Sequence record: PQ666539
Origin: Shigella phage sb1
Strand: one strand, 5' to 3'
Length of the DNA: 64,000 bases
A program made the position numbers and the translations under genes. Of this stretch, positions 32,927 through 33,466 are shown one piece after another (position 1 is the stretch's first letter; each line of letters starts with the position of its first letter). The notes beneath the pieces were generated by a model. That model had not been told where the DNA came from and did not search any database. It saw nothing but the letters and a program-made list of their open reading frames with translations.

Positions 32927-33104
32927 CTAAACGAATAGGTTCATGAATGCCATATCCTTGAACAGAAATTTCTGTCGTAGGATAAATTCCACTAATATCA
33001 CCCATATTCCACGCTTCATTAAATTGTTGTTCGCCTGAATTACTAAACCATTCGGCGAAAGCATTTAACACATCTTCAGAACCTTCAATAATTATCTTTG
33101 CCAT
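32883..33104 (-). CDS. Hypothetical protein (73 aa)
   Basis: ORF track. Confidence 0.4.
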   Translation of the reverse strand: MAKIIIEGSEDVLNAFAEWFSNSGEQQFNEAWNMGDISGIYPTTEISVQGYGIHEPIRLVEYDLCTGEEVKYD

Positions 33105-33466
33105 TACAGACTCTCAGTAAAGGTACGAGCGATAACGTCGCGCTGCTGTTCCGGAGTCAGAGAGTTAAAGCGAACTGCATAACCGGATACACGGATGGTC
33201 AGCTGCGGATATTTTTCCGGATGCTTAACTGCATCTTCCAGAGTTTCACGACGCAGAACGTTAACGTTCAGGTGTTGACCACCTTCAATTTTAACTGCAT
33301 GCTGTGGTTCAATTTCAATTTCACGGGCATGCAAACCATAGAAAATTTCTGGATCTACAAAAGAGTCCTCTTTAAAGGTTTTAGAGACAATAATTCGTGC
33401 TTGAATACCATCTTCAAAATAAATAGTACCTTTATGTGTGCCTTCAAGAATTTGATATGCTTTCAT
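33104..33466 (-). CDS. Autonomous glycyl-radical cofactor GrcA/YfiD-like protein (120 aa)
   Basis: ORF track; C-terminal [61 protein letters not shown] with RVSGYAV glycyl-radical motif; locally GC-rich DNA. Confidence 0.75.

Follow-up and report, generated by a model that had tools for sequence, protein, structure and literature searches.

The open reading frame at 33104..33466 on the minus strand of the window (the whole 64,000-nucleotide stretch of Shigella phage sb1, sequence record PQ666539, that was analysed here) is very probably a vs.6/Y06I gene with the same spare-part function as its T4 counterpart, the 3' part of which is a patch of Escherichia coli grcA introduced by recombination or gene conversion, with an independent patch of the same kind in Jiaodavirus. 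T-even phages are textbook lytic phages that destroy the DNA of their host and have essentially no sequence in common with it. Neither the gene nor its biochemical role is new; the recurrent host-matched patch adds a new case to a known kind of process.

The genomes closest to the window are those of T4-like Escherichia and Shigella phages, at ~97% identity, and the window phage is a Tequatrovirus. The open reading frame, which runs from ATG to TAA and encodes 120 amino acids, was assigned from the list of open reading frames, from a Pfam match to PF01228 (Gly_radical; aa 60–101, E = 2e-18) and from synteny with T4. Downstream lies vs.5 (32883..33104, minus strand), the start of which overlaps the vs.6 stop, and upstream lies vs.7 (33473..33853, minus strand), with a T4-type start at ~33802. 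This gene order, vs.7–vs.6–vs.5, is common to the window and T4, as is a position near regB, and further neighbours in the window include vs.1, denV, the lysozyme gene e and nudE. Nucleotide identity to T4 vs.6 (NC_000866.4, 63557–63919) is 97.8%. The original prediction had mentioned that a T4 homologue exists; judged by identity and gene context, the window gene is the ortholog of T4 vs.6/Y06I (NP_049730) itself. The two copies share their length of 120 amino acids, their context and the host-identical 3' tract described below, and their products differ at three residues (P56H, T57A and H73R), the first of which (CCT>CAT in the window) may be a sequencing error.

The product had been described as GrcA-like, and in this respect too the original prediction was right, the last 61 residues being identical to those of E. 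coli GrcA (also known as YfiD). The E. coli YfiD structure (PDB 6owr) aligns with aa 22–120 (E = 2e-40). The gene is a stand-alone open reading frame with its own Shine–Dalgarno (SD) sequence and ATG, and is not the C-terminus of a large glycyl radical enzyme. The RVSGYAV glycyl-radical motif (residues 92–98), located by motif scan and alignments, is encoded at 33173..33193, and within it the codon of the radical glycine, G95, occupies 33182..33184, both on the minus strand; in alignments this glycine is equivalent to G102 of GrcA and G734 of PflB. Against the model of the autonomous glycyl radical cofactor GrcA/YfiD (TIGR04365, IPR011140), the product scores 153 bits where the curated NCBIfam equivalog cut-off is 170 and E. 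coli GrcA reaches 233.9, and it covers the profile only from position 25; the cut-off is missed because the N-terminus is diverged and phage-specific. A scan for promoters and terminators around vs.6 returned nothing over shuffled expectation.

vs.6 was listed among 11 T4 ORFs of unknown function that are conserved in five compared T4-like genomes (PMC1524935) and is therefore old in the T4-like group. As stated in PMC8683613 with reference to Wagner et al. (2001), E. coli YfiD and T4 Y06I are the only two validated spare parts for pyruvate formate-lyase (PFL), taking a glycyl radical from PFL activase and restoring the oxygen-cleaved enzyme. By analogy with the T4 ortholog, the window product would function in the same way: host PflA would place a radical on the RVSGYAV glycine (G95) of the 14-kDa protein, which would dock on PFL that had been cleaved by oxygen at G734, and fermentative production of acetyl-CoA and formate would be restored in a host unable to make new host proteins. 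The vs.6 product agrees with E. coli GrcA in size class, in consisting of a glycyl-radical domain on its own and in its identical C-terminus, but its N-terminal ~59 residues are only ~37% identical and it is shorter by 7 residues. The settings of the genes also differ, the host gene lying at the ung–grcA–eamB locus and vs.6 in a lytic phage operon with overlapping genes. The C-terminal glycyl-radical domains of PflB and TdcE are the same domain, with the same motif.

The host-identical tract and the 5' half

A locally GC-rich, host-like segment had been predicted for the 3' part of this gene, and the corresponding check of GC content and codon usage bears this out. GC content is 48.6% at 33104–33288, against 33.1% in the 5' half of vs.6 and 34.7% in the window (z = 3.2; top 0.9% of 185-nt windows), and the sole region of higher GC, at 41.2–42.4 kb, owes its composition to a tRNA cluster. 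GC at third codon positions is 0.234 ± 0.065 in other ORFs, while vs.6 has 0.17 in its 5' half and 0.43 in its 3' half. The change in composition is sharp and falls within one gene, at codon 60. All six Leu codons in the tract are CTG, a codon used for 6% of the leucines in the rest of the window. Amino-acid composition was considered as the cause of the GC peak and rejected by simulation: re-encoding of the tract peptide in phage codon usage predicts a GC of 0.391 ± 0.019, and the observed 0.492 was not attained in any of 5000 draws. A natural control is provided by Karamviruses, T5-like phages and jumbo phages, which give nearly the same peptide at 33–42% GC.

The nucleotide alignment to host grcA on which the original prediction had staked its case gave a match at 183 of 185 nt, 175 of them uninterrupted. 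When vs.6 was searched by blastn, grcA was matched in every one of 5426 complete E. coli genomes, at 98.4–98.9%, but only along 185 nt of the gene (nt 179–363). The putative conversion tract lies at 33114..33288 on the minus strand and comprises the codons for EGGQHLNV...RTFT; read from 33288 to 33114, it equals grcA nt 200–374 at 175 of 175 positions and is followed by two differences and then the stop codon. When the whole 64 kb was searched by megablast in three pieces, the tract was the only part to match E. coli chromosomes generally. E. coli is its closest match (identity 0.989), ahead of another Escherichia species (0.978), Citrobacter (0.92) and Salmonella (0.84), and on these values the donor is identifiable at the species level, as E. 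coli/Shigella. No window-specific change falls within the tract, which is 100% identical to that of Shigella phage SH7. Horizontal acquisition from an enterobacterial host, as originally proposed, is upheld for the 175-nt patch (33288..33114) and not for the gene as a whole. The genes pflB and tdcE were also tried as donors and rejected, with ~76% identity of the window tract to tdcE and ~80% of the tract of a related phage (L098) to pflB, against 98.9% for grcA.

On its right-hand side the host tract ends ~10 nt ahead of the vs.6 stop. The phage-native 3' end that follows (GAGAGTCTGTAATGGC, 33100..33113, minus strand) holds an SD-like GAGAG, the vs.6 stop and the vs.5 start (TAATG), so that the phage SD and TAATG are retained; a longer tract would presumably have destroyed the start of vs.5. 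The GAGAGTCTGTAATGGC tail is shared with the Mosigvirus, Carettavirus, Slopekvirus and Pseudotevenvirus copies, whereas E. coli has GAAAGCCTGTAAGGC at this position. The right end of the T4 tract differs from that of the window by a few nucleotides, the E. coli A at grcA nt 375 being kept in T4.

The remainder of the gene (33289..33466, minus strand; codons 1–59/60) is AT-rich and apparently phage-native. No nucleotide match between this 5' half and E. coli was found by blastn in the 5426 genomes. At the protein level, aa 22–59 align with GrcA residues 28–66 in BLASTP, with ~37% amino-acid identity, and the YfiD structure 6owr aligns with the product from residue 28. To judge from these protein alignments, what the 5' half encodes is a phage homolog of GrcA, old and diverged.

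The mosaic structure of the window gene is clear when its codons are aligned with those of E. coli grcA and of a Karamvirus ortholog. Of the informative sites in the 5' half, 6 are host-like and 61 phage-like, whereas the 3' half has 45 and 1, respectively (Fisher p = 1e-23). The Karamvirus copies and the window gene are evenly diverged, with ~76% and 74–75% identity in the two halves, and the GC content of the Karamvirus 3' half, 0.39–0.42, is the value predicted by the simulation of phage codon usage; the AT-rich Karamvirus copies were accordingly taken to represent what would be the unpatched state. On the host side, the divergence of E. coli grcA from the Citrobacter gene is 12% (5' part) and 7% (3' part), and from the Salmonella gene 15% and 16%, in the same order. 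Since host grcA is without discontinuity and the phage gene is mosaic, the direction of transfer is from host to phage, the codon usage of the tract being host-like.

Copies of the gene in other phages

In Klebsiella Jiaodaviruses the same gene is found in the same context, with a GC content of 0.36 in its 5' part and 0.55 in its 3' part. Against an earlier GTDB host panel (80 loci, without K. pneumoniae) the Jiaodavirus copies reached only 88–90% identity. The K. pneumoniae donor was found via a metagenome scan with a Klebsiella GrcA query, the protein encoded by the three loci recovered (L193–L195) being exactly GRCA_KLEP7, a protein of the K. pneumoniae complex. Over K. pneumoniae grcA nt 202–359, phage KPV15 shows one mismatch and a perfect run of 140 nt. 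At the 20 sites that separate E. coli from K. pneumoniae grcA, the window carries the E. coli base every time (20/20) and KPV15 the K. pneumoniae base at all except one (19/20). A second phage, UTI-K1, has the same breakpoint, with informative sites dividing 8:58 against 41:7 (p = 1.5e-15). At least 90% identity to the K. pneumoniae tract was seen in 138 phage records, of which all the listed examples are Klebsiella phages. Read from these alignments, at least two independent host-matched conversions in vs.6 are on record, in the E. coli T-evens and in Jiaodavirus.

Two smaller points concern this group of matches. The KPV15 ortholog (NC_055715.1, L006:401–762) is 362 nt long and is annotated in RefSeq as two short CDS, the split probably resulting from a 1-nt sequencing deletion. 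Three records of T4-like phages with Citrobacter, Proteus and Pseudomonas as their recorded hosts (H218, H223 and H227) are 86–89% identical to the K. pneumoniae tract, which is the level of the E. coli T-evens listed alongside; if the tract follows the host, the usual host of these three phages may be E. coli.

Among E. coli phages the tract is widespread, with ~646 phage records at least 90% identical to the window tract and 643 of them at least 95% identical. In ~150 records of E. coli phages, identity to the window is only 80–90% in the 5' half, but for essentially all of them it is 95% or higher in the tract. For a comparison of ages, the window was set against copies from Mosigvirus (HX01 and SHSML-52-1), Carettavirus (phiE142) and JK45, an outlying Tequatrovirus species that clusters with these Mosigviruses. 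Synonymous divergence (dS) from these copies is 1.1–1.5 for vs.7 and vs.5, 0.41–0.56 for the 5' half of vs.6 and 0.02–0.17 for the tract. Between the window tract and E. coli dS is 0.045, both differences lying within the last 10 nt. By this measure of divergence the tract is of much later date than the separation of the E. coli T-even genera. We also observed that dS of the 5' half between genera (0.41–0.56) is itself well below that of the flanks (L003, L004, L187 and L188 compared), which suggests either that whole vs.6 alleles move between phages or that extra constraints apply.

Three phage tracts (L098, L100 and L004) were compared with three Escherichia grcA sequences (L190, L192 and L016) for the polymorphisms that they carry. 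The L098 tract combines 213G with 240C, E. coli polymorphisms of the O157 type and the K-12 type; this combination was found in no E. coli genome, the best match to L098 being 99.4%. In the JK45 tract, 303T falls on a site that is polymorphic in E. coli and has the same base, and the JK45 variants as a set match no E. coli allele, the best reaching 95.1%. The right-hand ends of the tract vary slightly between phages, while the left junction is identical in all E. coli phages. Differing right ends hint at separate events, or at later mutation, and for the E. coli phages these sequences are compatible both with many independent conversions and with a single one that phage–phage recombination then spread.

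Copies of the gene in Slopekvirus, Pseudotevenvirus, T5-like phages and jumbo phages gave no close host match, with identities of at most 81–86% in host panels that are poor in Cronobacter and Enterobacter; these may be old, decayed patches or native sequence. In Tequintavirus (L013:420–788 and L012) a grcA-like gene for a 122-aa protein lies just 3' of genes for tRNA-Ile and tRNA-Met, and its 3' half is only 72–76% identical to any host grcA sampled, with no host patch. In the Salmonella jumbo phage 7t3 (L015:421–783), a grcA-like gene for a 120-aa protein lies between the genes for the large subunit of anaerobic ribonucleotide reductase (RNR) and its activase, an arrangement that raises the question of phage spare parts tied to class III RNR; the domain is of the PFL type. 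Finally, L125, a 19-kb IMG/VR contig, has a grcA-like ORF of 150 amino acids with a 3' tract 91% identical to grcA of Yersinia artesiana. It may represent a third patch matched to its host, or else bacterial DNA that has strayed into a viral collection.

Mechanism and competing explanations

The patch would have been written into a pre-existing, diverged phage homolog during infection, by homologous or homeologous recombination or by gene conversion with host DNA, the phage recombination machinery acting on fragments of the host chromosome. Strong purifying selection on the radical domain would keep phage and host copies ~75–85% identical and in this way maintain a substrate for recombination. 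The left end of the patch lies at the edge of phage–host similarity, where the conserved domain that begins EGGQH starts. In the Klebsiella Jiaodaviruses the same process would have acted independently, placing a patch of K. pneumoniae grcA at the same position. The patch makes the domain match the GrcA of the local host, reading LEDAVKH, for example, in the phages of E. coli and LLDAVEH in those of Klebsiella. A host-exact patch may matter for docking to PflB or PflA, may supply host-optimal codons or may be neutral. A broader proposal, that each T4-like lineage has the 3' half of its vs.6 replaced time and again by the grcA allele of its current host, in an ongoing natural conversion into strictly lytic phages that degrade host DNA, stands in our estimation about evenly balanced between true and false.

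Four other accounts of the tract were weighed against conversion of an existing gene. Because the left junction falls exactly where host similarity starts and blastn finds none upstream, the gene might be a chimera, born when a single illegitimate recombination joined a 3' fragment of host grcA to a phage ORF with no relation to it. The 5' half shares ancestry with the N-terminal half of GrcA, however, as seen in BLASTP (aa 22–59), in TIGR04365 (from 25) and in 6owr (from 28), and full-length 363-nt orthologs with the same neighbours occur in Karamvirus, Slopekvirus, Pseudotevenvirus and Jiaodavirus with 3' halves that are either not host-like or match a different host; vs.6 is, besides, conserved across distant T4-likes. 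We therefore regard a chimera of this sort as improbable. Transfer in the opposite direction, with E. coli receiving the 3' end of grcA from a T-even phage, would fit the GC content of the tract (0.49), which is slightly below that of most other Enterobacteriaceae (0.51–0.58), and is if anything a little harder to credit than the chimera: E. coli grcA is equally diverged in its 5' and 3' parts from the genes of Citrobacter, Salmonella and Enterobacter, the tract is present in 5426/5426 genomes at the ung–grcA–eamB locus, its codon usage is atypical for the phage and not for the host, and the discontinuity lies in the phage gene.

The two remaining accounts would do away with transfer altogether, and we give next to no weight to either. 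Identity by convergence could in principle result if strong selection acted on the protein, its codon usage or some RNA or DNA element, and the C-terminal 60 residues are indeed almost invariant in all phage and bacterial copies. Against this, ~46 synonymous sites all read as in E. coli, the tract contains 20 sites that distinguish E. coli from K. pneumoniae, other phages give nearly the same peptide (with few amino-acid differences) at 70–85% nucleotide identity and 33–42% GC, and the Klebsiella bases are found in Klebsiella phages. Contamination with host DNA or chimeric assembly of the window record comes to mind because the record has an excess of G>T/C>A singletons and in-frame stops in 6 of 21 conserved ORFs, but the same junction and tract are seen in ~640 independent phage genomes, including the T4 reference, and in the window the tract is in frame and identical throughout to that of phage SH7. 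Conversion of a resident phage homolog by host grcA thus remains by far the most probable of the readings.

Intragenic host–phage recombination in cyanophage psbA and psbD was reportedly described by Zeidner in 2005. Patchy %G+C in these genes has been attributed to such recombination (Sullivan et al. 2006, PMC1484495). As in psbA and psbD, the gene is a metabolic one that T4-like phages owe to a host, and its patchy %G+C results from exchange of segments with the host copy. Unlike theirs, the vs.6 patch is confined to one tract with sharp bounds, matches a named host species base for base and is found in phages otherwise without host similarity, in two phage genera that each match their own host genus. 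In the literature searched we found no earlier report of the nucleotide identity between vs.6 and grcA or of host-matched patches, although prior mention is possible. Host-to-phage gene conversion of the type proposed for cyanophage photosynthesis genes would, on this evidence, act on enterobacterial T4-like phages as well.

The tract offers a short marker from which the host species can be read. If the 3' half is indeed replaced again and again by the allele of the current host, it would be a built-in host-species barcode for T4-likes, with which hosts could be assigned to uncultured phages and host switches dated. It would also offer a natural, tractable system for measuring recombination from host to virulent phage, in which marked grcA alleles would give a simple experimental handle on transfer. 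For annotation there is a caution, in that the name GrcA on phage genes leans largely on the host-derived patch, the N-terminal half being phage-specific.

Sequence quality and other features of the window

The anaerobic ribonucleotide reductase genes that the original prediction had placed in this genome are present, both on the minus strand (nrdD at 13024..14841 and nrdG at 12557..13027). Each is interrupted, nrdD by an in-frame TAA at 13399–13401 (E481*) and nrdG by an in-frame TAA directly after the CX3CX2C motif (S37*). Altogether, among the 21 conserved ORFs between 4 and 25 kb, six carry in-frame stops that their intact orthologs lack, the other four being those at ~3995–5632, 20699–21586, 21597–21995 and 22054–22578. 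Between ~3000 and 25500, G>T/C>A changes make up 34% (33/98) of window-specific singletons, against 1–7% in five relatives in the same analysis, and the replacements in nrdD are G>V, C>F, R>I, G>C, D>Y and R>L. Taken together, the stops and the G>T/C>A excess point to a sequence-quality problem (8-oxoG-like damage) or a mutator signature and not to a specific loss of anaerobic function.

The GC-rich tRNA cluster consists of 10 genes at 41561..42388 on the minus strand (Arg, Asn, Tyr, Met, Thr, Ser, Pro, Gly, Leu and Gln). Within it, the tRNA-Tyr stretch (41717–41807) is 89% identical to a plasmid-borne E. coli tRNA-Tyr, with ~254 records in the 80–90% band. Elsewhere in the window, a segment of 53 nt (24056..24108) has a 98% match to an unannotated site in a single E. 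coli genome of the 5426, that of strain BE104.
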